Virus record (IMG/VR): IMGVR_UViG_3300043444_000502
Coordinates: 64,001 to 128,000 of that record
DNA: 64,000 nt
Strand: one strand, 5' to 3'
Source: a virus
Lineage: Duplodnaviria > Heunggongvirae > Uroviricota > Caudoviricetes
Shown: in pieces, positions 811-18,907 of the stretch
Numbering within the stretch: position 1 is the first letter of the stretch
Layout of the letters: every line of letters starts with the position of its first letter
Made by a program: the position numbers and the translations under genes
Notes under the pieces: model-generated
Told to the model about the DNA's origin: nothing
The model's input: only the letters and a program-made list of their open reading frames with translations
The model's database searches: none

Positions 811-1881
811 ATGCGTGATTTTATTATTGAAAAGAAACGTGATCCTGAACAAGAATATACGCTTCATTTATTTGAACATTGCAATCTAAGATGTTCATTT
901 TGCTGGCAAGACCATGAAAATAAAGCAGGGTTGGATACAGTAATTGATAAATTAGATCCTATTGAACTATTCCTTAAAACGGAACAGCGCCACTCTGTAG
1001 TATTCAATGCTATGGGTGGCGAAGTTTTTTCCGATGAAATATTTGATGAAAAACTTTTGCAATCATATAAAGATTTATCATGGGGCATTAAAGAGTTAGG
1101 AAAAAAATATAATAAACTCGTTAAAATTAATTGGGTTACAAACTTAGTAACTCATAAAATTGATTATATTGAAGATTTACTAAATTATTCAAAAACTATT
1201 GGTTTAGAAGCACAATTAGTTACATCATATGATCCGCGCGGAAGATTTAATATAAATCAGTTCGAAGTTTTTAAAAAGAATATGGAATATTTTGGCAAAA
1301 GAATCACATGCATTAGTATGTTATTAAATGCACCAAATATTGAATACATCTTAAAAGATAAAGATTATTATTTCAAAAAGCTTTATAATGAAGGTTATTA
1401 CATATATTTTGATTATTATATGCCAGATGAATCAGCTGAATTTCAAGCTCCATCTGACATTCAATTAAAAAATGTTTTTAAACATTTAATAGATAATTAT
1501 CCTAATGTTCATCCAATATCTGACTGGATTAACAATGATAAAAATTATATTTCATGCAGAACTAGTAAATTGGTTTTAGCTGATGGAACAATCTGTAATT
1601 GCGGTAATTTAGTACAAGACGAAAAAGTTATTAAATTTTATTCATCTAAAATAGAAAAGATGGATAATTCAACCATTGAAAATAATTTTTTACAAAAATA
1701 TAATTGTGCTTCATGTGAATATTTGGATAGATGTACATTAAGTTGTTTTATGCAACATGATTATAAATTTAGGGAAGAACTTGATGAGTGTGTCTACAAA
1801 CTTACGCACAGATATATCGATGATGTTAGATTACAGCGAAAAGCCAACACCTCTATCGATAGTCCCTCCAAATCATATTGA
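811..1881 (+). CDS. Radical SAM protein with SPASM-like C-terminal Cys cluster
   Basis: CxxxCxxC (HCNLRCSFC), GGE motif, C-terminal CNCG...CASCEYLDRCTLSC. Confidence 0.9.
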   Translation: MRDFIIEKKRDPEQEYTLHLFEHCNLRCSFCWQDHENKAGLDTVIDKLDPIELFLKTEQRHSVVFNAMGGEVFSDEIFDEKLLQSYKDLSWGIKELGKKYNKLVKINWVTNLVTHKIDYIEDLLNYSKTIGLEAQLVTSYDPRGRFNINQFEVFKKNMEYFGKRITCISMLLNAPNIEYILKDKDYYFKKLYNEGYYIYFDYYMPDESAEFQAPSDIQLKNVFKHLIDNYPNVHPISDWINNDKNYISCRTSKLVLADGTICNCGNLVQDEKVIKFYSSKIEKMDNSTIENNFLQKYNCASCEYLDRCTLSCFMQHDYKFREELDECVYKLTHRYIDDVRLQRKANTSIDSPSKSY

Positions 1882-2383
1882 AGTATCTTTAGATACTGTA
1901 CCAACAAATTATCCGTATTTACCTAGGATTTGTTCTAGACAAGGATATGTTTTTATGTGGCATACAAATAAAAATGAATATCCAAATTTGTATCAAGTAT
2001 CCCAAAATTGTAAAACTGAATCTCAGTGGTTTACTACTAAAGACCAAAATGGCATCGAATTAGCATTAGCACTTATTCATGAATATGACAATGAAGTAAT
2101 TATTGGATGTGTAAAAACAGCAGGTTATTTAAAAAATGAACCTAAAGAGTTTGTACATACACTTATAAAAAATGTATGGAAAGACATAATTAAAACGTTT
2201 GGACATAAAAAAATTATATGTCCAAGTAGTTCATATCTAGAATACATACATTTATTTTTAAATCAAAAGAGAATTCCACATACTCCATATTGTAAAAAAT
2301 ATATGACTAAAAATAAATTCTATAGAATTGAAAACTATTGGATTAGAGATGGACTTAATAATAAAACCGACAGAAAAGTGTAA
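1784..2383 (+). CDS. Hypothetical protein in rSAM cluster (start 1784 or 1820)
   Basis: ORF track 1757..2383; in-frame ATGs at 1784 and 1820; overlaps both flanking rSAM genes. Confidence 0.7.
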   Translation: MSVSTNLRTDISMMLDYSEKPTPLSIVPPNHIEVSLDTVPTNYPYLPRICSRQGYVFMWHTNKNEYPNLYQVSQNCKTESQWFTTKDQNGIELALALIHEYDNEVIIGCVKTAGYLKNEPKEFVHTLIKNVWKDIIKTFGHKKIICPSSSYLEYIHLFLNQKRIPHTPYCKKYMTKNKFYRIENYWIRDGLNNKTDRKV

Positions 2384-3374
2384 TTTTAAATGCACGTTTT
2401 GTTCTTCTACACATATTACTGATGATAAAAGTGTAGAACTTGATCATGCAAAAATCTTTCAGTTCTTAGAAAGATATCCCAATACAAATACTATTATTGT
2501 TAATGGAGGAGATCCATTAATGATGCCTCCAGAATATTATCAAGAAATACTAGATTGGTTAGATGAACGAAATTATAAAACTACCATAAGTTTTACAACA
2601 AATCTTTGGCCGTTTTATAAGAATCCTACAAAGTGGTCAAATATATTTTCACATAAAAGAGTTGGAGTGACTACATCATTTCAATATGGTGGAGGTCGTC
2701 TTAAAGGAGATTTAACAGAATTTAGTGAAGAAGATTTTTGGAATGTTTCGAATTTATTTGTAACATATTTTGCTTATAGACCTAACTTTATCTCAGTTAT
2801 TACAGAAGAAAATGAACATCTTGCAATTAAAAACGTTGAACTTGCAAAAAAGATGAACACAGAATGTAAATTAAATTATGCGATGTCTTCAGGACCTCCT
2901 GTAAAATTTAAAGGTATTATTATGGGTCAAGAAGGTAAACCATATCTTCTTGCAAAGATCTATGAAATTTATGTTGAAATTTGGAAACGCGGATTAGCTC
3001 CTTGGGAGTTTAATACTAAACAAATGATGCAACGATTAAAGGGTCATGCAACATGTTGTCCACAAAATCGTGATTGTGATTCTGGTATCAGAGTTCTTCA
3101 ACCATCTGGAGATTATTATTCATGCGGTGCATTTGGAGATGATAGGCAATATCCAATTAATTTCTACAAAGAAATGAATGGAGAATTTATTCAACCATTA
3201 AAGCATCAGTTTGAATTACAAACAATGACTCCTAATTGTTACGGTTGTTCTATGTTCGATATATGTAATGGTTGTAAAAAAACAATCAAAGATCACAAAG
3301 ATTACAATTTAACAGAAATACATTGCAAAAAAATGAAATCATTAGCTCAGGATATAATTTATGCTAATAACTGA
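2349..3374 (+). CDS. Radical SAM/SPASM protein (anaerobic sulfatase maturase-like architecture)
   Basis: MDLIIKPTEKCNFKCTFC, NGGDPL, SPASM-like CCPQNRDC...YSC...CYGCSMFDICNGC...HC; ATG at 2349. Confidence 0.92.
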   Translation: MDLIIKPTEKCNFKCTFCSSTHITDDKSVELDHAKIFQFLERYPNTNTIIVNGGDPLMMPPEYYQEILDWLDERNYKTTISFTTNLWPFYKNPTKWSNIFSHKRVGVTTSFQYGGGRLKGDLTEFSEEDFWNVSNLFVTYFAYRPNFISVITEENEHLAIKNVELAKKMNTECKLNYAMSSGPPVKFKGIIMGQEGKPYLLAKIYEIYVEIWKRGLAPWEFNTKQMMQRLKGHATCCPQNRDCDSGIRVLQPSGDYYSCGAFGDDRQYPINFYKEMNGEFIQPLKHQFELQTMTPNCYGCSMFDICNGCKKTIKDHKDYNLTEIHCKKMKSLAQDIIYANN

Positions 3375-3900
3375 TATACACAATGAGTTTTTTAATAATG
3401 GTTTTTGCAAATTTAATGATCCAGAAGTATTTAAATTTTTACATGACATAGATTCTTGGGAATGGAAAAACTGGAAAGATCAAGGATTACAATTAATTAA
3501 ACGCAATCATACTATTGAATCTGCCATAATACAAACACAAAAATATATTGGTGAAAAATATATTTGTAAATTGGATGAAAATTATGTTTTGGGTGACGAG
3601 TGCGAAATAGTTAATGGAATGGATGATGCAACATTAACGTGGCATAATGACAATATTGAAGGTTATAATTTGTGTGTTTTATTATATTTTGATTCTATGG
3701 ATGAAGATATCGGTGGCATGACTCGTTTTAGAGATATTAACACTAAAAAATTGACTGGAGAATTTTATCCACAGCAATATGATGTTTCTTTTATGAATCA
3801 TTGTTTAAGATTTCAACACGTTGTAACTCCATTAATTTTAGATATGCCAAGAAGAGTTGCGTTATTTAATTATAAAATAAATGAGATTTTGACAGGATGA
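3361..3900 (+). CDS. 2OG-Fe(II) oxygenase
   Basis: HxD (WHND), GG strand motif, distal His (FQHVV) and Arg (RRVALF). Confidence 0.8.
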   Translation: MLITDIHNEFFNNGFCKFNDPEVFKFLHDIDSWEWKNWKDQGLQLIKRNHTIESAIIQTQKYIGEKYICKLDENYVLGDECEIVNGMDDATLTWHNDNIEGYNLCVLLYFDSMDEDIGGMTRFRDINTKKLTGEFYPQQYDVSFMNHCLRFQHVVTPLILDMPRRVALFNYKINEILTG

Positions 3901-4829
3901 TACTTTCAATCAATCCATGGTATTATTGTAATTTCAGATGTGAATTTTGTTATCTTACAGAAAAACAATTATCTGATAAAAAGCTTTTATCGCTTGACAA
4001 ATTAGCGAATATATTAGGCGAAATTGTTGCGCATAAACAAATTGATATGGTTGATTTATATGGCGGAGAATTGGGATTATTACCAAAGGAATATTGGAAT
4101 GATTTGATACAATTATTGCATAATTATGGAATATATGATATTAATTTAATTACTAATTTATCAATGATTAATGATATTACTATAGATGAACGAGTTTATA
4201 CATCAGTTAGTTATGATTTTAAAGCTCGTGAAGATTTTTTCAGAGTGTGGAAAAATATGGCTTTAATGAATAAACCATTTTCTATATTAATGTTAGCATC
4301 TCCAGGATTAATTAGCGAAAGCATTGACGATATAGTTTCAATGTTTAATTCTTTAAAAAATCTTGAATCTGTTGAAATTAAACCATACAGCAAAAATCAA
4401 GCCAATCAGTTTTCTATCAAAGATGATATTTACGAAGAATATGTCAAAAAATGGATATTACATAAAGATCGTAAATTTAAATTGGTTAATGAATCTCTCC
4501 TGGAATCTGTAGTAAATAGATCTAGGAATAGTTTTTCTGATGATCATGTTTATATTACACCCAATGGAAAATATGGCGTATTAGAATTTGATTTGAATGA
4601 TAATGAATATTTTTTAGAATATGATACTTTAGACGAATATTTTGCTTGGTGTGAAACTGAAAAAAAGAGAGTTTCTAAAAATAAATTCTGTAGTAGTTGC
4701 AAGTATTTTGGAAGGTGTTTATCAGAACATCTTAGAGATGTTAAAAGTTTAGATAATAGTTGTAATGGATATTATAAATTAATTGATTGGTATGAAAGAC
4801 TGGAAAATAAAACAAGAAATATATCATAG
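3897..4829 (+). CDS. Radical SAM protein with C-terminal Cys cluster
   Basis: YCNFRCEFC, YGGE, ITPNG, CSSCKYFGRC...CNG. Confidence 0.9.
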   Translation: MILSINPWYYCNFRCEFCYLTEKQLSDKKLLSLDKLANILGEIVAHKQIDMVDLYGGELGLLPKEYWNDLIQLLHNYGIYDINLITNLSMINDITIDERVYTSVSYDFKAREDFFRVWKNMALMNKPFSILMLASPGLISESIDDIVSMFNSLKNLESVEIKPYSKNQANQFSIKDDIYEEYVKKWILHKDRKFKLVNESLLESVVNRSRNSFSDDHVYITPNGKYGVLEFDLNDNEYFLEYDTLDEYFAWCETEKKRVSKNKFCSSCKYFGRCLSEHLRDVKSLDNSCNGYYKLIDWYERLENKTRNIS

Positions 4830-5190
4830 GTTGAATATTCAACATGATGATGATTTAAGTACTAAAGATATTCAAATTAGTACTAATATTATTGAAGATG
4901 CTATTAAATATTTTAATGAACGAGATCTTGGTTGGTTATATCCAGCTAAAAGTTATATGGTAGCTATATGTTATGCTAAATGGATAGCTAAAGAATTTAA
5001 TGAAAATAGAATGGATCTTTTAAATGATCCAGATTTATTACATGGTAATGATCCATATTTTGTGCCATATACACAAGATCCAGATACATATATCGGAATT
5101 TTTCAAAAGATTAATAGTTGGGATTTTGACGAATCTGCCGGAATGGTGCCAGATGTTAGATCATATTTCGAAAAAGAATTTATGTTATGA
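4792..5190 (+). CDS. Hypothetical protein in rSAM cluster
   Basis: ORF with ATG at 4792 overlapping the end of rSAM3; ATGA overlap with the next gene. Confidence 0.75.
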   Translation: MKDWKIKQEIYHRLNIQHDDDLSTKDIQISTNIIEDAIKYFNERDLGWLYPAKSYMVAICYAKWIAKEFNENRMDLLNDPDLLHGNDPYFVPYTQDPDTYIGIFQKINSWDFDESAGMVPDVRSYFEKEFML

Positions 5191-5699
5191 AGTTATATGA
5201 TCTGTGGCCAACTCGTGTAGTTAATGTAGATGTTCCATTGGACCTATGCACCAAAATTTATTCACAACATATCAATGTTCAATCTAAAGATTATGAAGAA
5301 GTCCTAGATGATAATGATAAAAGAACGTTGTTAGAATATGTGAATCGTTATTACCTGGCGGAATATGATATATGTGATGGTTGGATTAGAACTCTAACAT
5401 CTAAAGGTCATAATAATTTCGAATTGCACTGTGATAGTCATTATGGCAATCAATTGGTTGGTGTACTTCAATTGTTTGGTGATGAGGATAGAGGCGGAGA
5501 TATTAAATTATATGATCCAGCTTGGAGAAATCCTCAATGGATGTCAGATACTAAAAACAAGAATAGTAACACATTTGTAGTACCATTTAAAGCAGGTCAG
5601 TTTATTATATTCCCAGCTAATGTTTGGCATAGTGTTGAAACTTATTATGGTGAATCAAATAGAGTCACTTTAAATTTAATGTTTAGAAGAATAACATGA
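5187..5699 (+). CDS. 2OG-Fe(II) oxygenase-like protein
   Basis: HCD, GGDIKLYDP, IFPANVWHSV, RVTLN. Confidence 0.8.
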   Translation: MKLYDLWPTRVVNVDVPLDLCTKIYSQHINVQSKDYEEVLDDNDKRTLLEYVNRYYLAEYDICDGWIRTLTSKGHNNFELHCDSHYGNQLVGVLQLFGDEDRGGDIKLYDPAWRNPQWMSDTKNKNSNTFVVPFKAGQFIIFPANVWHSVETYYGESNRVTLNLMFRRIT

Positions 5700-6268
5700 T
5701 AAAACAACTTTGGCCAACATATTTCATGCAAGACACTATGGAAACTAGTATTATGCATGAAATGATATATTATCTAACTGTAGAATGTGACTTCAATAAA
5801 CCTCCATCTGATTTTGGATTAGAGAATATATTAGATAGTAAACATCCATCAGTATTAAAGTTCAAACAACAAGTTATTATTCCATCATTTAATAAGTATT
5901 TAAAAAATACCATCAATAAACAAATTGATGATTGGGCTGGATATAAAATGAAAGGTTGGTTAGCAGGAACTGGAAATGATTATAGTTTAAATTACCATAA
6001 TCATAGGGGAGCTCAAATTTCTGCAGTTTTTTATTTGTTATGTGAAGATCATAATAAAGGAGGTAATATTGCTTTTACTGATCCTAGACAAAACGCCAAT
6101 AGAGGATATGATGAAAACTTTACTCCATGGTTTAATGATGAAATTTTAAAGGTAAAATCTGGTGACATCGTAGTATTTCCAAGTTTTTTATATCATTTTG
6201 TCAGCACATATCGAGGATCTATGCGGTTGGCAATGCCTGTAGATTTATTTTTACATACTAACTCCTAG
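5696..6268 (+). CDS. 2OG-Fe(II) oxygenase-like protein
   Basis: HNH, SAVFYL, GGNIAFTDPR, VFPSFLYHFV. Confidence 0.82.
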   Translation: MIKQLWPTYFMQDTMETSIMHEMIYYLTVECDFNKPPSDFGLENILDSKHPSVLKFKQQVIIPSFNKYLKNTINKQIDDWAGYKMKGWLAGTGNDYSLNYHNHRGAQISAVFYLLCEDHNKGGNIAFTDPRQNANRGYDENFTPWFNDEILKVKSGDIVVFPSFLYHFVSTYRGSMRLAMPVDLFLHTNS

Positions 6269-6280
6269 CAATAAAAAATA

Positions 6281-6288
6281 TATAAATA
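6281..6288 (+). promoter_or_regulatory. T4-type late promoter TATAAATA
   Basis: Exact TATAAATA 37 nt upstream of the first structural gene; a gp55 gene is present in the window. Confidence 0.85.
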
Positions 6289-6324
6289 AAGCCAGAATAA
6301 CTCTATTTTTGGATTCACACACAA

Positions 6325-6657
6325 ATGGCTCAATTAGTTAACTTAGTTGTTGATCAAGGATCAGACTTTGTAGCCACCCTAGACGTTGAAGATTCTATTG
6401 GTACACCTATTGATCTTCAACCATATAATGTTAGAGGACAAATTAGAAAGACATACCAATCTTTAAATAAGGTTGAGTTTGGATGCACTAAAACAACTAA
6501 CCAGGGTGAAGTTAAACTATCTCTCACCGCAGCGCAAACTGCAGTTATGAAAGATGGTCGTTACGTTTATGATATTGAAATCGTCCACGCTACTGCAGGA
6601 ACAGTGATTCGTGTAGTAGAAGGCCAAATAACAGTAACACCAAGAGTATCGAGGTAA
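6325..6657 (+). CDS. Small virion structural protein (baseplate/fibre-associated, beta-rich)
   Basis: NLVVDQGSDF...GRYVYDIEI...RVVEGQITVTPRVSR pattern typical of T4-like structural ORFs; follows a late promoter. Confidence 0.6.
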   Translation: MAQLVNLVVDQGSDFVATLDVEDSIGTPIDLQPYNVRGQIRKTYQSLNKVEFGCTKTTNQGEVKLSLTAAQTAVMKDGRYVYDIEIVHATAGTVIRVVEGQITVTPRVSR

Positions 6658-6660
6658 TAA

Positions 6661-6888
6661 ATGTCTACAGCGTTAAGATCCAAGATTAGATTAGATACAC
6701 CAGTAACAGTGCGTACGTTCGCATTGGGTATTACATCGCTTAACTTATTAGACCTTAATGATGTTGACGCTACCGAATTAGAAGACGGTGCCATGATGAT
6801 TTATGATAGTGAAACACAAAAATTTAAGCTTACAGCTTCGTTGGACCATCCAAGAGCAAAGACAAAAATCATCGGAGGAAAGTACTAA
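6661..6888 (+). CDS. Small putative structural protein
   Basis: LLDLNDVDATELEDGAMMIYD fibre-type motif, ends IIGGKY; lies in the late operon. Confidence 0.55.
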   Translation: MSTALRSKIRLDTPVTVRTFALGITSLNLLDLNDVDATELEDGAMMIYDSETQKFKLTASLDHPRAKTKIIGGKY

Positions 6889-6891
6889 ACC

Positions 6892-8277
6892 ATGGCAACG
6901 ATTATTAAAATTAAAAATTCCGGTACAAGCGGTAACCCTAGTTCCCTTGCAACCGGTGAATTAGCGTATTCATACTTACAACAATTACCTATTGAAGGTC
7001 TAGTTGCCGCAAACGGTGGTGATCGTCTATACATTGGTACAGGTACAGAAGTTGCCGGTGAAGCTACTGATATTGTGGTTATTGGTGGTAAGTATTTTAC
7101 TGATATGTTGGATCACCAAAATGGTATCCTAAATCCAAGTTCTGCAATCGTCACAGATAGCTATTCTAAAATTAATGAAATCTTTATTGATAATATCGCT
7201 ATCGACGGTAATACAATTAACGTTACTCAAACTAACGGAGATTTACACTTAGCTGCTAACGGTACTGGTAAAGTTAAAATTGATTCTGACATTGATTTAT
7301 CAATCATTAACGTAGATACAGTATCATCATCACGCACAGATGGTAAAATTTTTATTGTACCAACTGGAACAGGATATGTTCAAATCTCTGGTCAAAACGC
7401 TCTACGCGTTCCAGTAGGTAATACAGCAACACGTGATGCTGCTCCTCTTGCTGGTATGTTCCGTTTCAACACAACAACAAACGTGTTTGAAGGTTATGAT
7501 GGTATTGCTTGGAACGCGATTGGTTCACGTCTACAAGATATTGACGGTAATACATACGTTTCTCCAGAAAATTCACCTGGTTCAAACAATAACCAATTGC
7601 GTATGTTTACAGACGGTCTAGAAAGATTACGTGTAGATAATGATGGCGGTTCAAAGTTTTCTACTGATTTGACTGCAGCAAGTCCAATCGGTACACGCAT
7701 CTATAATAACAGAATTGAATCATTTGGTTCTGATATTCTTTACCTTGATCCATCAACTGGAGCAGAAAATACTGGTTCTGTTGTTATTGAAGGTAACTTA
7801 ACAATCAAAGGTACTACAACAACAGTATCTTCTTCATCAATGCAATCTAATAATCCAACATTCATTTTGGGTTATATTTCAGATGCTGATGGTTCTGAAA
7901 CACCTTTAACAGCTCCTGATGGTCTTGATAAAGGTATGGAATTTAGATGGCATAATGGCAGTGCACAAAAATCTGGTTTCTTCGGTTATGATTCATCTGC
8001 ACGTCGTTTAACATTTATTGAAGATGCTACTAACTCAAATGATACATTTGCTGGTACCGCTTCTGATGTTCGCTTTGGCAATGCTTTATTAACAAGCTTA
8101 TCATTCTCATCATTTGCAGCAAATTCAGTACCATTCGTTGATGTTAACGGAGATGCATTATTCGCAGCCGGTGATTTCGTATCTGCATATAACACAGGCG
8201 ATGTAACTGGTCAAGTTTTACAAATGAGCGCATCAGGTGTTCCAACATTTGGTCATATTGATTGCGGTACATATTAA
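6892..8277 (+). CDS. Tail fibre/virion structural protein with Mtd-N-like N-terminus
   Basis: MATIIKIKNSGTSGNPSSLATGELAYSY; GMFRFNTTTNVFEGYDG fibre motif; ends IDCGTY. Confidence 0.7.
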   Translation: MATIIKIKNSGTSGNPSSLATGELAYSYLQQLPIEGLVAANGGDRLYIGTGTEVAGEATDIVVIGGKYFTDMLDHQNGILNPSSAIVTDSYSKINEIFIDNIAIDGNTINVTQTNGDLHLAANGTGKVKIDSDIDLSIINVDTVSSSRTDGKIFIVPTGTGYVQISGQNALRVPVGNTATRDAAPLAGMFRFNTTTNVFEGYDGIAWNAIGSRLQDIDGNTYVSPENSPGSNNNQLRMFTDGLERLRVDNDGGSKFSTDLTAASPIGTRIYNNRIESFGSDILYLDPSTGAENTGSVVIEGNLTIKGTTTTVSSSSMQSNNPTFILGYISDADGSETPLTAPDGLDKGMEFRWHNGSAQKSGFFGYDSSARRLTFIEDATNSNDTFAGTASDVRFGNALLTSLSFSSFAANSVPFVDVNGDALFAAGDFVSAYNTGDVTGQVLQMSASGVPTFGHIDCGTY

Positions 8278-8294
8278 TTTAAATAGGATATATT

Positions 8295-8504
8295 ATGTCA
8301 ATTGAAGCTTCACAAGAATTTGTTAATAAGTTTGTTGAACGTCAGCAAAGAGCAATTGCAGATCTAATGAATAAAGTAGTTTTATTAGAAACACAACTTG
8401 CGATGGCTGCCGATAAAATTGTAGCTTTAGAAAAACTTGTACCAGAAGAAGAAAAAAAATCTGATGGCTTCGAGTCATCAGATATTAAAAAAGATAACGA
8501 GTAA
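8295..8504 (+). CDS. Small coiled-coil protein (possible fibre chaperone)
   Basis: 69-aa ORF with heptad-like pattern; GGA RBS upstream. Confidence 0.6.
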   Translation: MSIEASQEFVNKFVERQQRAIADLMNKVVLLETQLAMAADKIVALEKLVPEEEKKSDGFESSDIKKDNE

Positions 8505-8983: not shown

Positions 8984-8984
8984 G

Positions 8985-8992
8985 TATAAATA
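8985..8992 (+). promoter_or_regulatory. T4-type late promoter TATAAATA
   Basis: Exact consensus directly upstream of ORF 8999. Confidence 0.8.
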
Positions 8993-8998
8993 TAATCT

Positions 8999-9289
8999 AT
9001 GGCAACTATTAATAAACCTCTAAGAATTAAAGACGACTTGATTATCGATCAAGCACCAGGTCGTCAAATGGTTATTCCAGTTGGTACAGATAGCGATCGT
9101 CCTGGTGCATTAGGCATGCCTTGGGAAGTAGAAGGTCCTACTACAGGAACTATGCGTTTAAATCAAGATAGAGGCGTTGTTGAAATTTACAATGGATCTG
9201 GTTGGCAATCAGTTGCTCAAGCTGGTGATGCTGTTAACGCTTCAGGTGCTGAAGAGATTGCGCTTGTACAAGCGATTATTTTTGGATAA
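8999..9289 (+). CDS. Putative structural protein
   Basis: GTMRLNQDRGVVEIYNGSGW fibre motif; ends AIIFG. Confidence 0.6.
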   Translation: MATINKPLRIKDDLIIDQAPGRQMVIPVGTDSDRPGALGMPWEVEGPTTGTMRLNQDRGVVEIYNGSGWQSVAQAGDAVNASGAEEIALVQAIIFG

Positions 9290-9296
9290 TAAATAA

Positions 9297-10053: not shown

Positions 10054-13000
10054 ATGGCAGAGTTTAAACTTGGTAGATTAAAGTTCTGGTGGAAAGGTGA
10101 GTGGCAAACAGGTCATGCTTACGTCAAAGATGATGTAGTTCGCTTTGGCGGTAAGTCATACGTTTGTATCGGCTCACACAATTCCGGAATTAACGATGAG
10201 AGCTTTTATACAGCTCTTGAAACAGCTCCTTTCAAATGGGAGTTAATGACTGATGGTATTCAGTGGCAAGGCGAATGGACAACAGGCACTTACTATAAAG
10301 AAGGTGATGTTGTTAAGTTTGGTTCTGACACATATATCTGCGTCGATGGAAATACAGCTTCTGCTGATTTCATGGCTGACCAAGATGCTGGTAATTGGGA
10401 AAACTTCGTTAATGGAGTTGAACTAGAAGGCGATTGGAATTCTTCACACAATTACCAAGTTGGTGATATCGTACGTTTAGGCGGTAATACATTTATTGCT
10501 AAGCGTGACAATACGAATGCAAAACCGACTGTTAGTACAGACGACTGGGGTGTATTCGTTCATGGTTTAAAGTGGAAAGGTCAATATGCTCCTACCACAA
10601 CATATTTCCCTGGTGATGTAGTTAAAGAAGGTTCTTCTTCATATGTAGCTATTGTAGAAACAATTGGAACTGCACCATCTACAGATTTAGCTAATACTAC
10701 ATGGAATGCAGTTGCTGAAGGCGACACATCTGATGTTTTAACTACAACAGGTGATATCGCTGTTTATGGCACAACAAATATTCAACGCTTACCTGCTGGC
10801 GCCGGTAATGCAGTTCTTCAAATTGATGCAGTTTCTGGTGTTCCTGCTTGGAAGCAAGATGTTGAAATTGCAGGCGATTTGATGGTACAAGGTGATGCAC
10901 ATGTTGTACAAGGCGACGTGTATCAAGGTCCAAATGCTCAAGATTATACACAAGACGTTGATATTTTCGATGTAACATCAGAAATTACTAGTGTTACAAA
11001 ATCGGCGACTCAAGTATTCATCTATTATGCTGTTGGTTCAGCATTAGCTAATGCTAATGGTGGTTATCATATCGATATGTCAGGTGTAGCTGATCCTAAC
11101 ACATTAATGAATTCATCATTCTCTGTTGATAGCAATAATACAACTAATCGTGTAATTACTATTACAGTCGCAGGTTTAACTGGAACTGGTACAGTTAATT
11201 TAACTGGTGCTACAGTTTCTTTATATGGTCCAAATGCATATGCAGGTATGACTGATGCATCTGGCGTATTCGTTGGTAATGCTGATTCATTTGTACAATT
11301 TGCTCTTAAGAATACAAATAACGGCACTGGTGCTTCTACTGACTTAATCGTTTATGCTGATAACGGTGATAATTCATCTGGTTGGATGGATATGGGTATC
11401 ACTTCATCACAATTCGATAATCCTGACTTTACAGTTACTGGTCCAAACGATGGTTATATTTTCATGTCTGCTCCTACTGGAACAGCAGGTAAAGGTGACT
11501 TGATTCTTGGTACTGGTGACGGTGGTCAACACAATGACATTGTAATGTTTACTGGTGGTTTTGATGCTGCTAACGTAAAGATGAGATTGATTGGTACAGC
11601 TCGTCCAGAAATTTCAGAATCAACAGGTATGCCAACTGGTCGTACAATCGAACCAGGCGTTGAAGTATATTTAACTTCAGTCGCAGAAAACTGGGATGAA
11701 GGTGCACTTCGTGTTGTTGGCGGTCTTGGTGTTCAAGGTAATATCATTACGAAGGGTGATCTTCGTGCTGAAATGGGTGTTATTTGCCAAGGTTCAAACG
11801 CTAAGAAATTAACAGAAGATGACTATGTTTACCCAGGTTATGTTGGTTTAACAAATCCTTCTGCAATTATGACAGGTAATGCAAACTCATTTGTACAAAT
11901 GTCATTGAAAAACTTTAGTACTGGCGATTTAGCTTCTACTGACTTAATTCTTTATTCTTCAGCCGGTGATAATAACTCTGGTTGGATCGATATGGGTATC
12001 TGTTCTGAGAACTATGATGATCCATCATTCGGTGTAACAGGTCCTGGTGACGGTTACATTTTTATGTCAGCTAAAGAAGGTTCTACAACTGAATTAGGTA
12101 ACTTATACGTTTCAACATCATCTAATGGTGTTCAAAATGATATCGTATTCTCAACTGGTGGTTTTGAAGATAGTTCGTATGAACGTATGCGCATTATTGG
12201 TTCAGCACGACCAGGCAAACAAGCTGGTGTTGAAATTTATTCTTCAACAAATTCAACAAGTACTACAACAGGTGCTTTACGTGTTAACGGTGGTATTGGT
12301 TTACAAGGTAACTTAAACGTTGGTGGTGATGTTAATATTAATGGTAACACAACTATCCAAGGTACAATTGTTATTGCCGGTGGTTCAACAACTGTTACAT
12401 CTCAAAACTTAGCTGTTCAAGATCCGATGATTTTCTGTGCAGACGGTAACTCTGCAGACATCGTTGATATGGGTGTTGTTGGTTCATATCGTCTTGCGCC
12501 AGATTCATACACAAGCGTTGATTTAGTAGGAGCTACATTTGCTGCTGCAGGAGAAACGCTATATATCACTAAAACTGCTCATGGTGCAACAAATTTAGAT
12601 CGTATGACTATTAGCAGTGCTAATAAAACTGAATATAATGGTACATACGAAACTATTACTATTGTAGACGCAAATACTATCACAGTACAAAAAATTGGCG
12701 CTACATGGAATGGTCCAGTTACAGCAACTGCAACATTAGGCGTATTTGTGAATGGTTTACGTTATGCAGGTTTAGTGCGTGATCACGTTGATGGTCGCTT
12801 TAAGTTATTCACTGCATATCAAGTTTCTAATAAACCTACAACTGTAATTAATCAAACTGATGCTCAAGATGCATTCTTAGAATTAGGTGCAATCAAAGTT
12901 ACTAATACTACAGCGTCATCAAGTTATACAACTGGTGCGGTAATTGTTAGTGGCGGCGTGGGTGTTTCTGGTGCGATGTATGTACAAAATGCATTATATT

Positions 13001-13329
13001 GCGGCAGCGATATTACAGCATGGTATTCATCTGATAGTCGCTTAAAAGATAATGTTAAACCTATTGAAGGCGCATTAGATAAGATTTCTAAAATTGGTGG
13101 TTATGAGTTCGACTGGAACGCAACTGCTAAAGAACAATTCCCAGATCGTGAAACACATGATATCGGTGTGATTGCTCAAGAAATTCAAGCAGTACAACCA
13201 GAAGTTGTTGTTGAACGTGATAACGGTTATTTAGCTGTTAACTATGAGAAGCTTGTTCCACTATTAATTCAAGGTATTAAGGAACTACAAGAGGAAGTTA
13301 AAGCTCTTCGTGCAAAAATTGGAGAATAA
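10054..13329 (+). CDS. Long tail fibre: four N-terminal CBM5/12-like repeats, internal 200-aa duplication, C-terminal intramolecular chaperone (peptidase S74)
   Basis: Four WxGxW...Y..GDVV repeats; STTTGALRVNGGIG motifs; SDSRLKDNVKPI...GVIAQE...VNYEKLVPLLIQGIKEL. Confidence 0.88.
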   Translation: MAEFKLGRLKFWWKGEWQTGHAYVKDDVVRFGGKSYVCIGSHNSGINDESFYTALETAPFKWELMTDGIQWQGEWTTGTYYKEGDVVKFGSDTYICVDGNTASADFMADQDAGNWENFVNGVELEGDWNSSHNYQVGDIVRLGGNTFIAKRDNTNAKPTVSTDDWGVFVHGLKWKGQYAPTTTYFPGDVVKEGSSSYVAIVETIGTAPSTDLANTTWNAVAEGDTSDVLTTTGDIAVYGTTNIQRLPAGAGNAVLQIDAVSGVPAWKQDVEIAGDLMVQGDAHVVQGDVYQGPNAQDYTQDVDIFDVTSEITSVTKSATQVFIYYAVGSALANANGGYHIDMSGVADPNTLMNSSFSVDSNNTTNRVITITVAGLTGTGTVNLTGATVSLYGPNAYAGMTDASGVFVGNADSFVQFALKNTNNGTGASTDLIVYADNGDNSSGWMDMGITSSQFDNPDFTVTGPNDGYIFMSAPTGTAGKGDLILGTGDGGQHNDIVMFTGGFDAANVKMRLIGTARPEISESTGMPTGRTIEPGVEVYLTSVAENWDEGALRVVGGLGVQGNIITKGDLRAEMGVICQGSNAKKLTEDDYVYPGYVGLTNPSAIMTGNANSFVQMSLKNFSTGDLASTDLILYSSAGDNNSGWIDMGICSENYDDPSFGVTGPGDGYIFMSAKEGSTTELGNLYVSTSSNGVQNDIVFSTGGFEDSSYERMRIIGSARPGKQAGVEIYSSTNSTSTTTGALRVNGGIGLQGNLNVGGDVNINGNTTIQGTIVIAGGSTTVTSQNLAVQDPMIFCADGNSADIVDMGVVGSYRLAPDSYTSVDLVGATFAAAGETLYITKTAHGATNLDRMTISSANKTEYNGTYETITIVDANTITVQKIGATWNGPVTATATLGVFVNGLRYAGLVRDHVDGRFKLFTAYQVSNKPTTVINQTDAQDAFLELGAIKVTNTTASSSYTTGAVIVSGGVGVSGAMYVQNALYCGSDITAWYSSDSRLKDNVKPIEGALDKISKIGGYEFDWNATAKEQFPDRETHDIGVIAQEIQAVQPEVVVERDNGYLAVNYEKLVPLLIQGIKELQEEVKALRAKIGE

Positions 13330-13335
13330 TACAAA

Positions 13336-14007
13336 ATGGCAACACGTTTAACACAGACCGGTATCGAATATCCAGACGGTACCGTTCAAATTCAACGCTT
13401 TGATGGCAATGATGATCGTGGCGGTCTTTTACAGATCGCTACGTATACTGGTAGTAGTACGTGGTACAAACCTGATGGAGCACGTCAAATTCGTGTTCTA
13501 GTTATTGGTGGCGGTGGCGGTGGTTGCGGTCACACAGAATCTGGTGGTGCAGGTGGTTTTGCTGAAAAATGGATTGATGTTTCTAGTTGGGCAAATGGTA
13601 CTGCTGTTACTGTAACATGTGGTGGTGCTGGAGATGGTAGAAACTATTTCCAAGGTTGTGGTAATGGCGGAACATCTTCTTTCGGTGGATATTGTTCAGC
13701 TTCTGGTGGTCATGGTGCTAACACACAATGGGGTCATACAGGAGGAACAGGCGGTGTAGGTTCCGGCGGAGATATCAACCTTAGAGGTGGCGGTGGCCAT
13801 GGCCATGATAATGAAGCTGCTTCTCAAGGTGGTACAGGTTATTTTGGTGGCGGTTCATTTGGTAACCACCACAGTTATCGCCCTCACTATGCTGAAGGCA
13901 CAAACCATAATGCACCCGGTGGTGGTGGAGCTGGTAACTGGATTACTAATCACGGTCGCGGAGCATATGGTTCTGACGGTGCTGTCATCGTTTATAGCTA
14001 CGCATAA
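13336..14007 (+). CDS. Glycine-rich adhesin-like protein, paralog 1
   Basis: YPDGT..Q; TWYKPDG...V.VIGGGGGG; poly-Gly runs; ends GAVIVYSY. Confidence 0.8.
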   Translation: MATRLTQTGIEYPDGTVQIQRFDGNDDRGGLLQIATYTGSSTWYKPDGARQIRVLVIGGGGGGCGHTESGGAGGFAEKWIDVSSWANGTAVTVTCGGAGDGRNYFQGCGNGGTSSFGGYCSASGGHGANTQWGHTGGTGGVGSGGDINLRGGGGHGHDNEAASQGGTGYFGGGSFGNHHSYRPHYAEGTNHNAPGGGGAGNWITNHGRGAYGSDGAVIVYSYA

Positions 14008-14019
14008 GGAAAAAGATTT

Positions 14020-14685
14020 ATGTCTATTAAATTAGGTCAAGCAGGTGTAGTATATCCAGATGGCGTAGCACAATCAACTAAATATGATACTTCGCTAGAT
14101 AGAGGTAAGGTTATTAGAGTTGACTTCTGGACTAGTAATGCTACGTGGAATAAACCAGCGGGTTGCAGAAAAATTTTCGTACAAGTAATTGGCGGCGGTG
14201 GTGGCGGTTGTGGCCACTGTGAAGCTGGTGGTGCTGGCGGTTATGCAGAAAAATTAATCGATGTTACTGGTATAGATAGTGTATCAGTAACAGTTGGTGG
14301 TGGTGGAGATGGTCGTAACTATCATCAAGGTTGCGGTGGCGGCGGTACAACATCATTTGGATCATATCTATCAGCATCTGGTGGTAATGGTGCAAATACT
14401 TGGGGTTCTCATACTGGCGGTCATGGCGGTGTAGGTTCTGGTGGTGACGTTAATTTACACGGCGGCGGAGGTCGTTCACATGGTGATCAAGGCCAATCTA
14501 AAGGTGGCGAAGGTTATTTTGGTGGAGCTAGTGCATCAGGACATCATGGCGGCAATTTCTACTCACACTACGCCGAAGGTTTAAATCATTGTCCTCCAGG
14601 TACAGGAGGTTCAGGAGAGTGGACATCACATTCTCGTGGTGCGTATGGTGTACAAGGTTGCTGTATCGTATATAATTATTCTTAA
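14020..14685 (+). CDS. Glycine-rich adhesin-like protein, paralog 2
   Basis: Colinear with paralog 1 (YPDG, TWNKPAG, GGGGGCGH, GGVGSGGDVNL). Confidence 0.8.
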   Translation: MSIKLGQAGVVYPDGVAQSTKYDTSLDRGKVIRVDFWTSNATWNKPAGCRKIFVQVIGGGGGGCGHCEAGGAGGYAEKLIDVTGIDSVSVTVGGGGDGRNYHQGCGGGGTTSFGSYLSASGGNGANTWGSHTGGHGGVGSGGDVNLHGGGGRSHGDQGQSKGGEGYFGGASASGHHGGNFYSHYAEGLNHCPPGTGGSGEWTSHSRGAYGVQGCCIVYNYS

Positions 14686-14697
14686 GAAGATAAAGTT

Positions 14698-15360
14698 ATG
14701 TCAGTAAAATTAGGTCAAACAAATATTACGTACCCAGACGGTACTACGCAAGCAGCTAAATATACATCTGCAGATGATAAAGGTAATTTACTAAGTATTC
14801 AATCATGGACTAGTAATGGTACATGGACAAAACAAGCTGGTGTAAGAAGCATTCGTGTTATGTTAGTTGGTGGCGGTGGTGGTGGATCTGGTCATGGTCA
14901 ATCTGGTGGTGCTGGCGGTTATTCTGAAAAAAGAATCGACGTATCATCTTGGGCTGATGGCACTACAGTAAGCGTCACAATTGGTGATGAAGGCGGTGGC
15001 GCACATTCAAATAACTCAGGCGGTCAAGGTGGCACAACATCATTTGGTTCATATTTGTCTGCAACAGGTGGTCGAGGCGCTAATCAAGATTGGGGTCATT
15101 GCGGTGGTCATGGTGGCGTAGGTTCTGGCGGCGACATCAATCTTCGTGGTGGTGGTGCATCAGGACATGATAACCGCGGAGGTCGCGGTGGTGCATCATT
15201 CTTCGGCGGTTCTAAATTCTCAGGTTGGCCAAATCACCATTTCTCACATCAACATGAAGGACATGTTCCTCCAGGTGCTGGTGGGTGTGGTGAACACGTT
15301 AATCATTCGCGCGGTGCGCATGGTGCAAGAGGTATCTGTATCGTATATAACTATAGTTAA
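14698..15360 (+). CDS. Glycine-rich adhesin-like protein, paralog 3
   Basis: Colinear with paralogs 1 and 2; His-rich loop NHHFSHQHEGH. Confidence 0.8.
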   Translation: MSVKLGQTNITYPDGTTQAAKYTSADDKGNLLSIQSWTSNGTWTKQAGVRSIRVMLVGGGGGGSGHGQSGGAGGYSEKRIDVSSWADGTTVSVTIGDEGGGAHSNNSGGQGGTTSFGSYLSATGGRGANQDWGHCGGHGGVGSGGDINLRGGGASGHDNRGGRGGASFFGGSKFSGWPNHHFSHQHEGHVPPGAGGCGEHVNHSRGAHGARGICIVYNYS

Positions 15361-15390
15361 TAGTTATTTTTTTATTATAAAGGTTATATA

Positions 15391-17013
15391 ATGCAAGTTA
15401 AAAGTGTCTTAATTGTTGGTGGTGGTAGTTCAGGATGGATGACAGCTGCAGCGATTAAAAAACAATTGCCACATATTGATATTACATTAGTTGAATCTGA
15501 TAAAGTTCCAACTATTGGAGTGGGCGAATCAACAATTGGTCAAATCAACAGTTTTATGATGGCTGTTGGTTTAAAAGATAAAGATCATGAATGGATGCCT
15601 AAATGTAATGCTACATATAAAACATCCATTAGATTTACAGATTTCAGAGAAAAAAATGAAAAGCCTAATACTTTTCATTATCCATTTGGAATATTTGATT
15701 TAACTGACAAAGAACGTGGTGCGATGGATTGGTTCTATATGCAATTAGACGATCCATCTATTCCTCCAGAAAATTTTGCTGAATTTTATCATGATCACGT
15801 TATCATGGCAAATCAGATGAAATTTACTGATAACAAAGATCATGAAATTAGAATGTTTAATTTTAAGTTTGATACTGCATATCATATGGATGCAGCGTTA
15901 TTTGGACAATACTTAAAAAATAATATTTGTATTCCTGAAGGTGTTAAACATATTGTTGATGATGTTACAGGAGTAATTCAAAATGAAGATGGTTATGTAA
16001 CTGGTGTTACAACGGTAACAAATGGTGTATTAAAAGCTGACCTATTTGTTGATTGTACTGGTTTTAAATCTATGTTATTAGAAGGTGCTATGGGAGCAGA
16101 GTTTGTTTCTTTCCATGACACGCTAATGAATGATAGTGCAATTGCTACAATTATTCCATATCTAGACAAAGATAAAGAAATGTCTAGTGTAACAAACTGT
16201 ACAGCAATTGATGCTGGTTGGGTTTGGAATATTCCATTATATAATCGAATCGGCACAGGTTATGTGTATTCTTCAAAGTTTGCAACTAAAGAAGAAGCTG
16301 AAGCACAATTTAGAAAACATTTGGCTTCAGATAGAATGGATTATGTCGATGAACGTTCTAAAGAACGTGCTGAACAAGCAGAATTTAGACATATTAAAAT
16401 TAAACATGGATGTCATAGACGTTCTTGGATTAAAAACGTAGTAGGTGTTGGTTTAGCTAATGGGTTTATTGAACCATTAGAATCCACTGGTCTTATGTTA
16501 ACGCATGAAGCAATTATGAAATTAATTGATGTGTTAGACATGAGAGATGGCTATGTAAATCAATATGATATTGATACATTCAATTTTACAATGTTTGATC
16601 AAGTAAATGGATTTAAAGAATTTATTTCTTTACATTATACTCTTTCTAAGAGAAATGATACTCCATATTGGAAACATGTAACTGAAGGTTTTACATATTC
16701 CAATGAAATGATTGAATGGAAACCTAAAATTAGAAATCCATATACAGATTTAGCATATAGAAATTTAGTAAATCACACATATGGTCCAGATCAGGGCGGT
16801 TTAATTTATATTGCAGCTGGTCATGGTTATAATCCATTATCTAAGCGTTGGATTGATGATGAAGCTCAACGCATTAATATAAATATGGGATATGATATAA
16901 AGAAAACTAGGAAGTTGTGGGAAGATCACGTTAAAGAGTTACAAATAACTTTAGACAAACTTCCGACACATTATCAATGGTTAAAACAAAATTATTACAA
17001 TAATCAGGAGTAA
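15391..17013 (+). CDS. Flavin-dependent (tryptophan) halogenase family protein
   Basis: GGGSSG FAD motif, IGVGEST, ATYK (PrnA K79-equivalent), WVWNIP (WxWxIP), FIEPLESTG. Confidence 0.9.
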   Translation: MQVKSVLIVGGGSSGWMTAAAIKKQLPHIDITLVESDKVPTIGVGESTIGQINSFMMAVGLKDKDHEWMPKCNATYKTSIRFTDFREKNEKPNTFHYPFGIFDLTDKERGAMDWFYMQLDDPSIPPENFAEFYHDHVIMANQMKFTDNKDHEIRMFNFKFDTAYHMDAALFGQYLKNNICIPEGVKHIVDDVTGVIQNEDGYVTGVTTVTNGVLKADLFVDCTGFKSMLLEGAMGAEFVSFHDTLMNDSAIATIIPYLDKDKEMSSVTNCTAIDAGWVWNIPLYNRIGTGYVYSSKFATKEEAEAQFRKHLASDRMDYVDERSKERAEQAEFRHIKIKHGCHRRSWIKNVVGVGLANGFIEPLESTGLMLTHEAIMKLIDVLDMRDGYVNQYDIDTFNFTMFDQVNGFKEFISLHYTLSKRNDTPYWKHVTEGFTYSNEMIEWKPKIRNPYTDLAYRNLVNHTYGPDQGGLIYIAAGHGYNPLSKRWIDDEAQRININMGYDIKKTRKLWEDHVKELQITLDKLPTHYQWLKQNYYNNQE

Positions 17014-17018
17014 TAAAC

Positions 17019-17546
17019 GTGGCAAAATATGCTTTATTTTTAAAAGATGAACCAATTTCACAAGATGGTTTAAAGCGCATTCATGAAGTAGTTAATTCTG
17101 CAGAAGAATGTTTTGAAGTACATGAATCATTTGAGTGGGTACAATGTCCAAATCAAGTATTAAACCGTGATTGGAAATTTAACACACAAACAAATTCTTG
17201 GGTTGAACCGGCTATTCCAGTAACAGAATATGGTATTGCGCGCAGAGTGCATTATGGAGAAGTTGGTGCTCAATTAGATCGCATTTTTCACGCAACTCAA
17301 GCTGGAGCAACTGATCCTCTTGGTGAATGGGCTGCAGAACAAGAAAAAATTAAAGCTGTATTTCCAAAAGATAATGCAGCATACACAAATGAATCTAATG
17401 CAGAAATCGTACGTCGCTGTAATGCTATTTTAGAAGAAGCAGAACGCGAAACTGGTGTTTTTGGCAAATATATCGATATGCGTCAAATGGCATTAGATTT
17501 ATACGATGATATTCAAGCTGGTCGTTGGGTTAATCCAGCAGCTTAA
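17019..17546 (+). CDS. Tail fibre assembly-like protein
   Basis: FEVHESFEWVQCP...W.F...W.EP...R..HYGEVGAQLD pattern typical of fibre-associated ORFs; GTG start. Confidence 0.5.
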   Translation: MAKYALFLKDEPISQDGLKRIHEVVNSAEECFEVHESFEWVQCPNQVLNRDWKFNTQTNSWVEPAIPVTEYGIARRVHYGEVGAQLDRIFHATQAGATDPLGEWAAEQEKIKAVFPKDNAAYTNESNAEIVRRCNAILEEAERETGVFGKYIDMRQMALDLYDDIQAGRWVNPAA

Positions 17547-17568
17547 GCTTCAAAAATTTAAAGCATAT

Positions 17569-17595
17569 ATAAAGGGAGATTCGATCTCCCTTTAT
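17569..17595. terminator. Hairpin/terminator ending the fibre-halogenase operon
   Basis: Perfect 12-bp inverted repeat ATAAAGGGAGAT-tcg-ATCTCCCTTTAT. Confidence 0.7.
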
Positions 17596-17614
17596 CATTT
17601 GGAATGGAACTATT

Positions 17615-18907
17615 ATGAACTTTGACAAAATTATATCTTTTGGATATCCACAATTTACTGAACAACCGCATTTATATTACACGTATTTAAAAAATGCACA
17701 TCCAAGATATCGTGCTGAAATTCGTGATTTATATTTTTCAGTACCATACAAATATAAATGGAATGGTCATGATTTTATGTATGGTGACGTTATGGCTGCA
17801 TCATCTGATGATAGACATTTTGAATATATGTTAAAAATTCAAAATGAATTTGGAATTGCTCTATCATTAACGTTTAACGAAACATATCCAAATAAAGAAT
17901 TATGCGGTGATAAAGATGTATTAAATGGATTTATTAATCATATTGGTAAATTCTATGAAATGGGTATTAGATCGTGTACAATATCACACGTACACATGAT
18001 GGCTATGGGTATTTTGCAAAAAAACTTTCCAGAAATGAAATGGAAAAATACAGTTAATCATATCATTACTAAACCCCAACAAGTAGTTGACATGTATACA
18101 TTGGGTTATGATGTTATTAATTTAGATCGTTCATTAAATCGCGATATGGATGCTTTAAAAGCAATTCAACCGCTGCGTAAAAAATATCCTGAAATGGAAC
18201 TGAGTTTACTAGTTACAGAAGGATGCATGCCACACTGTCCATTTAAAGTAGAACATGATACCATGAATAAAGAACCTGGTTATCAATATTGGCATAATCA
18301 TGGTAATGTTTCATGCGGGATTTGGAGAAATGTTGAAACAAATGAATTGCCTAGAATTGGCACTGATATGATTTGGGGCGATAAAGAAACTTTTTATGCA
18401 TATGCTGAAATGGTAGATTATTTTAAATTTTCAGGTAGAATGGGAAAACTTCCAGATAATGCAGATGCTGAAAATGATAAATTCGTTTGGTCGATGGTTC
18501 AACCAAAATCAAAAAGGCGTTATACTTACAATCCGTGGTTTTTAAATCATTTAGATCAAGGCACATACGCAACGGCAGATTGTCTACAAGATGTCATTGA
18601 GAATGATTTAGGTCCAATTAGTCCAACATGGGAATTTGGAAGATTTATTAATAAAACACATGATTGTAAAACCACATGGAATTCAATCAATGCATTAAAT
18701 GATGGTAACGTGTGGGCTACCAAAAAGGGTAAAGCTTTAAATCATGTTTTAAAAAATTGTAAAAATGAATGTTGGGATTGCCATGCATGTGAAAGAACGT
18801 TTGGAAGTAAAGATTTTGATTCTCTAATTGAAATCGATAGAGATGTTTCTGTTTTACAAGGTAATTTAGAACATTTTAAAGGCATTCCAATTATCAAGCA
18901 ATTATAA
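17615..18907 (+). CDS. U32 peptidase-like Fe-S protein (putative O2-independent hydroxylase family)
   Basis: INLDRSLNRD, LLVTEGCMPHCP, YFKFSGRM (cf. U32 LKIEGR), C-terminal CKNECWDCHAC. Confidence 0.6.
   Translation: MNFDKIISFGYPQFTEQPHLYYTYLKNAHPRYRAEIRDLYFSVPYKYKWNGHDFMYGDVMAASSDDRHFEYMLKIQNEFGIALSLTFNETYPNKELCGDKDVLNGFINHIGKFYEMGIRSCTISHVHMMAMGILQKNFPEMKWKNTVNHIITKPQQVVDMYTLGYDVINLDRSLNRDMDALKAIQPLRKKYPEMELSLLVTEGCMPHCPFKVEHDTMNKEPGYQYWHNHGNVSCGIWRNVETNELPRIGTDMIWGDKETFYAYAEMVDYFKFSGRMGKLPDNADAENDKFVWSMVQPKSKRRYTYNPWFLNHLDQGTYATADCLQDVIENDLGPISPTWEFGRFINKTHDCKTTWNSINALNDGNVWATKKGKALNHVLKNCKNECWDCHACERTFGSKDFDSLIEIDRDVSVLQGNLEHFKGIPIIKQL

Follow-up and report, generated by a model that had tools for sequence, protein, structure and literature searches.

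Two conserved enzyme cassettes beside the fibre genes of a pelagimyophage-like virus, and a candidate role for a VirX1-type halogenase in tailoring fibre-tip proteins

The stretch analysed here (the window) comprises 64,000 nucleotides, positions 64,001 to 128,000 of the IMG/VR virus record IMGVR_UViG_3300043444_000502, and carries between positions 811 and 18907 a set of tail-fibre genes surrounded by genes for oxidative and radical enzymes. It is part of a single 167.6-kb contig with T4-type terminase, sheath, portal, major capsid, UvsW, gp46 and gp43 genes, all on the plus strand. The major capsid protein shares 63% identity with its counterparts in the Pelagibacter phages HTVC008M and Mosig and the Methylophilales phage Melnitz, and the phage is therefore a pelagimyophage-like T4 relative, not a cyanophage; a megablast search of the whole region against cultured phages gave no match. 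A previous sequence-only reading had counted eight enzyme genes of four classes flanking the fibre genes and proposed that they form one candidate integrated system that may modify the adhesins. The count is correct, with three radical S-adenosylmethionine (radical-SAM)/SPASM genes, three small 2-oxoglutarate (2OG)-type genes, one halogenase and one U32-like gene, and these do surround structural genes, namely those of an LtfC-like assembly protein, a 1091-amino-acid (aa) fibre and three Gly_rich_2 paralogs. The radical-SAM, 2OG and halogenase classes are evident from sequence, one of the 2OG genes only weakly, and the U32 class from fold alone. The integration is only partly supported because the enzymes fall into two independently distributed cassettes, which we call A and B.

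Cassette B (10054-18907) consists of the fibre, the three glycine-rich paralogs, the halogenase, a gp40-like protein and the U32-like enzyme, all encoded on the plus strand. The 1091-aa tail fibre (10054..13329) has two N-terminal CBM_5_12 domains (PF02839, E 5e-15) and a C-terminal S74 intramolecular chaperone (PF13884, E 7e-17), and is followed by the Gly-rich fibre-tip paralogs 1 (13336..14007; PF21722, E 1.8e-11), 2 (14020..14685; E 2.9e-9) and 3 (14698..15360; E 8e-14). Next come a VirX1-type flavin-dependent halogenase (15391..17013) and p175 (17019..17546; phrog_1787, E 7e-18), a gp40-family protein and possible fibre assembly chaperone. A palindromic hairpin with a 12-bp stem, to which no strand is assigned (17569..17595), separates p175 from the gene for a 430-aa U32-like TIM-barrel protein (17615..18907; phrog_1458), named for its fold matches to U32 proteins. 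p175 belongs to a virus-only atlas cluster, the Gp40 family; of the named clusters, tail assembly chaperones come closest to it (score 0.86), a weak lead towards a chaperone role. Beyond the module lies the gene for a 448-aa protein (19361-20707) that contains a bactofilin-type domain (PF04519, E 2e-9) and also matches PHROGs of phage structural and tail-fibre proteins.

The halogenase matches PF04820 (E 4.5e-108) and, as its best match in the PDB, VirX1 (6QGM, E 1.5e-143), to which it is 44% identical. In the alignment to VirX1 the catalytic motifs are intact (GGGSSGW, NATYKTSIRF with the Lys of ATYK, GWVWNIP and FIEPLESTG), so that domain and motifs together place the protein in the tryptophan-type flavin-dependent VirX1 clade, with halogenase activity as the prediction. 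Although viral halogenases have been on record since 2005 and VirX1 serves as a biocatalyst, we know of no viral halogenase with an assigned natural substrate. The active site of VirX1 is unusually large and open, many small aromatics serve as substrates in vitro, and both the natural substrate and the biosynthetic cluster of VirX1 are unassigned (PMC8407142). A complex prediction of the window halogenase with Gly-rich paralog 2 scored 0.00, which is evidence neither way. The window encodes a second intact flavin halogenase (57593-59071; 492 aa, phrog_2928) that is 29% identical to the fibre-linked one.

Linkage of the cassette B genes was examined in IMG/VR loci centred separately on the halogenase, the U32-like gene and the Gly-rich genes. 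All three locus sets share a block consisting of the fibre, one to four Gly-rich paralogs and the gp40-family p175, followed by enzymes; in 73 of 78 Gly-centred loci, p175 is the gene immediately after the Gly-rich ones. After dereplication of the Gly-centred sample at 80% p175 identity, with at least 4 kb of downstream sequence required, 39 clusters were obtained, of which 38 contain a halogenase, 29 a 2OG oxygenase and 15 a U32-like gene. The commonest layout is Gly, p175, U32, 2OG, Hal, and the open reading frame (ORF) frequently found between the U32-like gene and the halogenase is indeed a 2OG oxygenase. The window and its closest relatives have instead the layout Gly, Hal, p175, U32, and in a third layout the halogenase-2OG block is inverted after p175. 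The cultured phages Syn9, Syn10, S-CREM1 and P-RSM6 show the same pattern minus the U32-like gene, and a halogenase lies within 4 kb of the Gly-rich match in all cultured phage records with such a match by tblastn (16/16). Exactly three tandem Gly-rich paralogs are present in 32 of the 39 clusters, a rule that would fit either a heterotrimer at the tip or three tips used as alternatives. Of the enzyme families named in the sequence-only reading, the halogenase and often the 2OG and U32-like genes thus accompany Gly-rich genes across many diverged phages, and the radical-SAM genes of cassette A are found in none of 80 U32-centred loci, rSAM2 being absent from five long relatives as well.

The three Gly_rich_2 paralogs are 220-223 aa long with mutual identities of 57-60%. 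An AlphaFold2 model of paralog 3, built on 50 relatives (predicted local distance difference test score, pLDDT, 90.4), superimposes on the fibre of cyanophage Pam3 (7ypx_A) with a Z-score of 21.0 and a root-mean-square deviation of 2.3 A over 179 residues, on the tail tip of mycobacteriophage Bxb1 (9d93) with Z 15.5, and on the glycine-rich domain of ALK/LTK with Z about 9. PDB sequence searches with paralog 3 alone or with a 42-sequence profile retrieved neither Pam3 nor Bxb1, and fold comparison alone found them; T-even gp38 adhesin entries were not among the fold matches of paralog 3, although kinship is still possible. With a Pfam match to PF21722 and a modelled fold shared with fibres resolved in virions, the paralogs are genuine polyglycine-type fibre-tip proteins. 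The previously claimed enrichment of Trp, His, Cys and Tyr in adhesin loops is confirmed for His only, which makes up 4.5-5.9% of the paralogs, the mean over the window being 2.1%, and gives them ranks 1, 3 and 5 among 69 window ORFs; Trp and Cys lie within about 1-2 standard deviations and Tyr is average.

Candidate target residues emerge when the tip proteins are compared between loci with and without a halogenase. In paralog 3 numbering, H134 and H157 are each present in 45 of 45 proteins from halogenase-bearing loci and Y104 in 43 of 45. In proteins from halogenase-free loci the corresponding counts are 0/9, 2/9 and 0/9. Paralog 2 has Y101, H131 and H154, and across 42 proteins whose loci include a halogenase these positions are invariant or nearly so. 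When a maximum-likelihood tree was built, the proteins from loci lacking a halogenase fell into a single well-supported clade within the halogenase-bearing ones, apart from the long-branched protein of S-RIM2, whose genome contains no halogenase anywhere; the topology therefore implies two apparent co-losses of the residues and the halogenase. This co-loss is suggestive and not statistically strong.

The U32-like protein was assigned by structure. It gave no match to Pfam (PF01136 or related families), NCBIfam or PDB sequences at E values up to 0.01-1, and because such sequence matches are absent the assignment stands at the fold level only. The AlphaFold2 model (pLDDT 89.8) has as its first PDB match the U32 peptidase Mk0906 (5d88; E 7e-9, TM-score 0.66 by target), and its top matches among Swiss-Prot models are MJ1657, TrhP, TrhP1/2, PrtC, UbiU and RlhA. 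Among 269 homologues collected, none has a Pfam domain; in the 43 that were aligned, C204, C208, C234 and the cluster C382-x3-C-x2-C-x2-C392 are invariant and C121 is nearly so. U32-type hydroxylases bind a 4Fe-4S cluster through four conserved cysteines, and by this comparison the U32-like protein is a putative Fe-S enzyme.

Taken together, the best-supported reading of cassette B, and one that we hold tentatively as somewhat short of an even chance, is that the halogenase, perhaps with the oxygenase and the U32-like enzyme, tailors the Gly/His-rich tip proteins. The halogenase would act, with reduced flavin, O2 and halide, on tip proteins that are still in the cytoplasm and not yet assembled into fibres, and the halogenated side chains would be the conserved Tyr and/or His or Trp residues. 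In relatives, the neighbouring 2OG oxygenase would add hydroxylation, and the joint outcome of halogenation and hydroxylation would be a tuning of adhesion or stability. The part played by the U32-like enzyme is the least certain step. The more specific proposal that VirX1-type viral halogenases are protein-tailoring enzymes for tip-protein Tyr, His or Trp, with the U32-like enzyme as a second, O2-independent step, is possible and somewhat doubtful. RiPP-pathway flavin halogenases such as MibH (RiPP, ribosomally synthesized and post-translationally modified peptide) offer a precedent for acting on Trp within a peptide, not on the free amino acid. Transcription signals bear on the timing. A late-promoter-like TATAAATA site lies ahead of the fibre genes on the plus strand (6281..6288), with others at 8899, 8985, 16878 and 18903; the window contains 12 matches in total, every one on the plus, coding strand, although this number is not above chance, and none occurs within 1-6280 or between the 8985 site and the beginning of the halogenase gene. 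With this arrangement the halogenase and the tip genes may be expressed together late in infection. Downstream of the 6281 site, and ahead of the large fibre, lie genes for the LtfC-like fibre assembly protein (6325..6657, plus strand; phrog_3304, E 5e-23; weak PF23926) and for a 461-aa virion structural protein (6892..8277, plus strand; phrog_15769, E 1.7e-123).

A number of observations weigh against tailoring of the tip proteins, and some of them favour other substrates. Modification of the adhesins in virions is a prediction, and no Trp, His, Cys or Tyr column is invariant across 50 diverse Gly_rich_2 family members. Paralog 3 of the window itself lacks Y104, and the co-loss of residues and halogenase rests on two events only, one of them on a long branch. 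The halogenase-free clade and S-RIM2 retain the Gly-rich, p175 and U32-like genes, and halogenation is therefore not essential. No literature linking viral halogenases to fibre proteins was found; older reviews suggested protection from antibiotics, DNA repair or 2OG balancing, and the published account of the Syn9 cluster reads it as secondary metabolism, without connecting it to the fibre genes (Iyer et al. 2010, PMC2938197). A rival reading, possible if doubtful, is that a small halogenated and hydroxylated metabolite, derived from an amino acid, is made or tailored by the halogenase and oxygenases, whose position behind the fibre genes would reflect only an inherited, tolerated insertion site at the end of the operon. 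The Syn9 array, with ten dioxygenases and two halogenases, was interpreted in this way by analogy with bacterial clusters containing TonB receptors and peptide synthetases (PMC2938197), and the breadth of small aromatics taken by VirX1 in vitro points in the same direction. So do halogenase relatives in non-fibre contexts: besides the second halogenase of the window, enzymes at most 37% identical adjoin gp46 in S-B64 and psbA in S-MbCM6. Moreover, in many loci the enzyme block stops where the convergent neck and gp15 genes start, and the fibre/neck boundary could be a tolerated, vertically inherited insertion site. Against a metabolite, neither scaffold-forming enzymes (nonribosomal peptide synthetase, polyketide synthase, ATP-grasp) in the examined loci nor peptide-synthetase or other small-molecule pathway genes in the module were seen, the link to the Gly-rich and p175 genes outlasts three rearrangements and holds in 38 of the 39 dereplicated clusters, and Tyr/His conservation in the tip proteins tracks the presence of the halogenase.

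Characterised U32 relatives hydroxylate RNA bases or quinones, and the similarity in fold to TrhP, RlhA and UbiU raises a second alternative, in which nucleic acids, tRNA or glycans are the substrates of the U32-like enzyme, possibly also of the halogenases, and fibre proteins are not involved. About one quarter of the U32-like relatives, in two separate clades, belong to T4-type replication modules, with regA on one side and the gp43 DNA polymerase gene on the other, and the second halogenase of the window comes immediately after the DNA polymerase gene, with no fibre gene nearby. The bacterial homologues likewise speak for other substrates, since their surroundings in a surface-polysaccharide locus of a Desulfobulbaceae metagenome-assembled genome comprise GT2 and GT4 transferases, methyltransferases, a Wzx-type flippase and TPR proteins. 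On the other side, three deep U32-like clades are fibre-linked, each immediately 3' of a gp40-like gene, distant relatives likewise stand last in the fibre module of the cultured cyanophages P-SSM4 and S-RIM2, and the protein lacks sequence-level membership in the U32 family. We regard an action on nucleic acids or glycans as unlikely, and less likely than the production of a metabolite. The loci concerned are as follows: an example of the replication-module arrangement is locus L062 (7884-9227), with about 20 similar loci and two tandem copies in L054; the Desulfobulbaceae contig (L173) encodes two 416-aa homologues (8001-9251 and 13292-14542); and the distant relatives that close the fibre gene set in P-SSM4 (L091, 7055-8620) and S-RIM2 (L092, 7067-8632) are 521 aa long. 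A placement of the U32-like relatives without Gly-rich neighbours in head/tail modules was considered and dropped, PHROG scans having identified a replication module.

The proposed tailoring of the tip proteins concerns the halogenase side of the locus, and the radical-SAM genes belong to cassette A, which occupies 811-6268 of the window plus about 3 kb upstream of it. All its genes in the window are on the plus strand. rSAM1 (811..1881; PF04055, E 8e-7; CNLRCSFC motif) is radical-SAM/SPASM-like and has orthologues at the same cassette position in RSF1 (E 6.5e-54) and Atu_ph07 (E 8e-72). A 208-aa ORF between rSAM1 and rSAM2 (1757..2383), whose listed start overlaps rSAM1, has no match in Pfam, NCBIfam or PHROG. 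rSAM2 (2328..3374; PF04055, E 5e-8; SPASM TIGR04085, E 3e-5) shows weak similarity to the peptide maturases DynA and HxsC and is about 60% identical to genes of jumbo phages with Ralstonia, Burkholderia, Agrobacterium, Sinorhizobium and Pseudomonas hosts. rSAM3 (3897..4829; PF04055, E 1.6e-7), with a Cys-rich C-terminus, has orthologues in RSF1 (E 5.7e-96) and Atu_ph07 (E 6.9e-103). Each of the three has a CxxxCxxC motif and a Cys-rich, SPASM-like C-terminus, as in radical-SAM/SPASM peptide maturases, the TIGR04085 matches among the window radical-SAM genes being weak (E 3e-5 to 4e-4).

The oxygenases are interspersed with these genes. 2OGa (3361..3900) is a probable 2OG-Fe(II) oxygenase in which the HxD...H triad appears as WHNDN...FQHV and the PF13640 match (E 3e-3) falls under the Pfam cut-off; it has homologues in the RSF1 cassette (E 4.5e-9). 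After unk135, a 135-aa protein (4783..5190; phrog_20737, E 9e-50) whose homologue (E 1e-27) closes the RSF1 cassette, come 2OGb (5187..5699; PF13759, E 9e-8; HCD...H triad) and the oxygenase-like 2OGc (5696..6268; PF13759, E 8e-11). Both of the latter combine an iron triad with a match above the Pfam cut-off, that of 2OGc reading HNH...H. A WelO5/SyrB2-type halogenase identity was considered for the 2OG genes and rejected: 2OGb matches WelO5 weakly and is not a halogenase variant because its HCD...H triad is intact. The oxygenases adjoining the radical-SAM genes probably belong to cassette A, although for the two PF13759 genes (5187-6268) membership is ambiguous, homologues of 2OGc being present in the RSF1 cassette and also, in cyanophage-type loci, downstream of halogenases.

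The region upstream of the window encodes a 360-aa fibre-like protein, a JmjC-type cupin, rSAM0 (radical-SAM/SPASM), a 191-aa protein and two unknown proteins. The 191-aa protein ends in a Cys-His-Ser tail, HVCHASCHSSCHSSRGRR (= CHASCHSSCHSS, CHASCHSSCHSSRGRR), with CHxS three times at its extreme end, and its homologue in Atu_ph07 has the C-terminus CHSSCHASCHNSRSRR. Gene order in Atu_ph07 is colinear (JmjC, rSAM0, tail protein, u221, rSAM1, rSAM2, rSAM3), and that in RSF1 runs u221, rSAM1, rSAM2, 2OG, rSAM3, three more 2OG genes and the unk135 homologue; because of this colinearity, the window radical-SAM genes (811-4829) are the downstream half of a cassette that starts upstream. By analogy with the maturation of HxsA by HxsB and HxsC, the target of cassette A is likely the upstream Cys-His-Ser-tail protein and not the adhesins: the four radical-SAM/SPASM enzymes (rSAM0-3) and the JmjC/2OG oxygenases would mature the 191-aa protein in the same fashion. 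The notion that all eight enzymes form one system cross-linking, hydroxylating and halogenating the adhesins draws on their physical proximity, seen in the window genome only. It is very improbable, since the radical-SAM cassette and the fibre/halogenase module lie apart in every other genome examined, including the jumbo phages Atu_ph07 and RSF1, which have the former and no halogenase, and since the radical-SAM cassette encodes a candidate substrate of its own. The G+C content, 27-29% over the radical-SAM/oxygenase island (1-6000) against 36-41% over the adjacent fibre genes (6000-16000), fits a separate origin of the cassette. The best explanation overall, to which as a whole we assign a probability of roughly 0.4, is that cassettes A and B are two independent conserved gene sets on either side of a late fibre operon, A maturing the Cys-His-Ser-tail protein and B being a fibre-tip module whose halogenase modifies the tip proteins.

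With the radical-SAM cassette split off, the composite neighbourhood is no longer read as a single system, and the three radical-SAM genes of the window are tied to the upstream Cys-His-Ser-tail cassette. The link of the halogenase to the Gly/His-rich tip genes, kept through rearrangements, becomes a candidate answer to the question of what viral halogenases act on. If the proposal is true, marine phage virions would carry halogenated, possibly iodinated or brominated, receptor-binding proteins; halogenation of a virion protein by an enzyme would then be seen for the first time, and phages would have a new means of tuning adsorption in halide-rich seawater.

The sequence-only reading had held that no biochemically characterised system of this kind is known, a statement that needs qualification in view of the published halogenase/dioxygenase cluster of Syn9 (PMC2938197). 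Syn10 and S-CREM1 share with the window region the order of Gly-rich, gp40-like and halogenase genes. Compared with Syn9 (gp38-gp54) and Syn10, the window has a single halogenase, placed between the Gly-rich and gp40-like genes, has the U32-like enzyme in addition, and lacks the tandem dioxygenase array behind the halogenase; it also comes from a pelagimyophage-like phage and not a cyanophage. The Gly-rich paralogs have their fold in common with the Pam3 fibre, the Bxb1 tip and ALK/LTK, a likeness in fold and not in sequence, and differ from them in occurring as three paralogs in tandem, in which additional His and Tyr residues are conserved. The U32-like protein resembles the U32 hydroxylases TrhP, RlhA and UbiU/UbiV, and Mk0906, in combining a TIM-barrel fold with conserved cysteines, whereas its cysteine spacing is different, it has an extra C-terminal CxxxCxxCxxC motif, and the TM-scores reach only 0.4-0.66.

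For cassette A the closest parallel is the HXS anti-phage system, in which two radical-SAM enzymes, HxsB and HxsC, mature the His-x-Ser repeat effector HxsA (PMC13128918). Cassette A likewise places radical-SAM/SPASM genes, with weak HxsB and HxsC matches, beside a His-x-Ser-type repeat protein. These matches score 29.7 bits for HxsC (cut-off 268) and 28.4 for HxsB (cut-off 370), the tail protein has no family match, and neither HxsD nor a peptidoglycan-binding domain was detected in cassette A; since the family cut-offs are missed, the likeness is one in mode of working and not one of membership. In contrast to HxsA/B/C/D, cassette A is phage-encoded and has four radical-SAM genes, JmjC/2OG oxygenases and a tail with CHxS three times. 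For cassette B, finally, the nearest enzymes known to work on peptides are the MibH-type flavin halogenases of RiPP pathways, which act on short, leader-guided peptides, whereas the targets proposed for the window halogenase are folded structural proteins.

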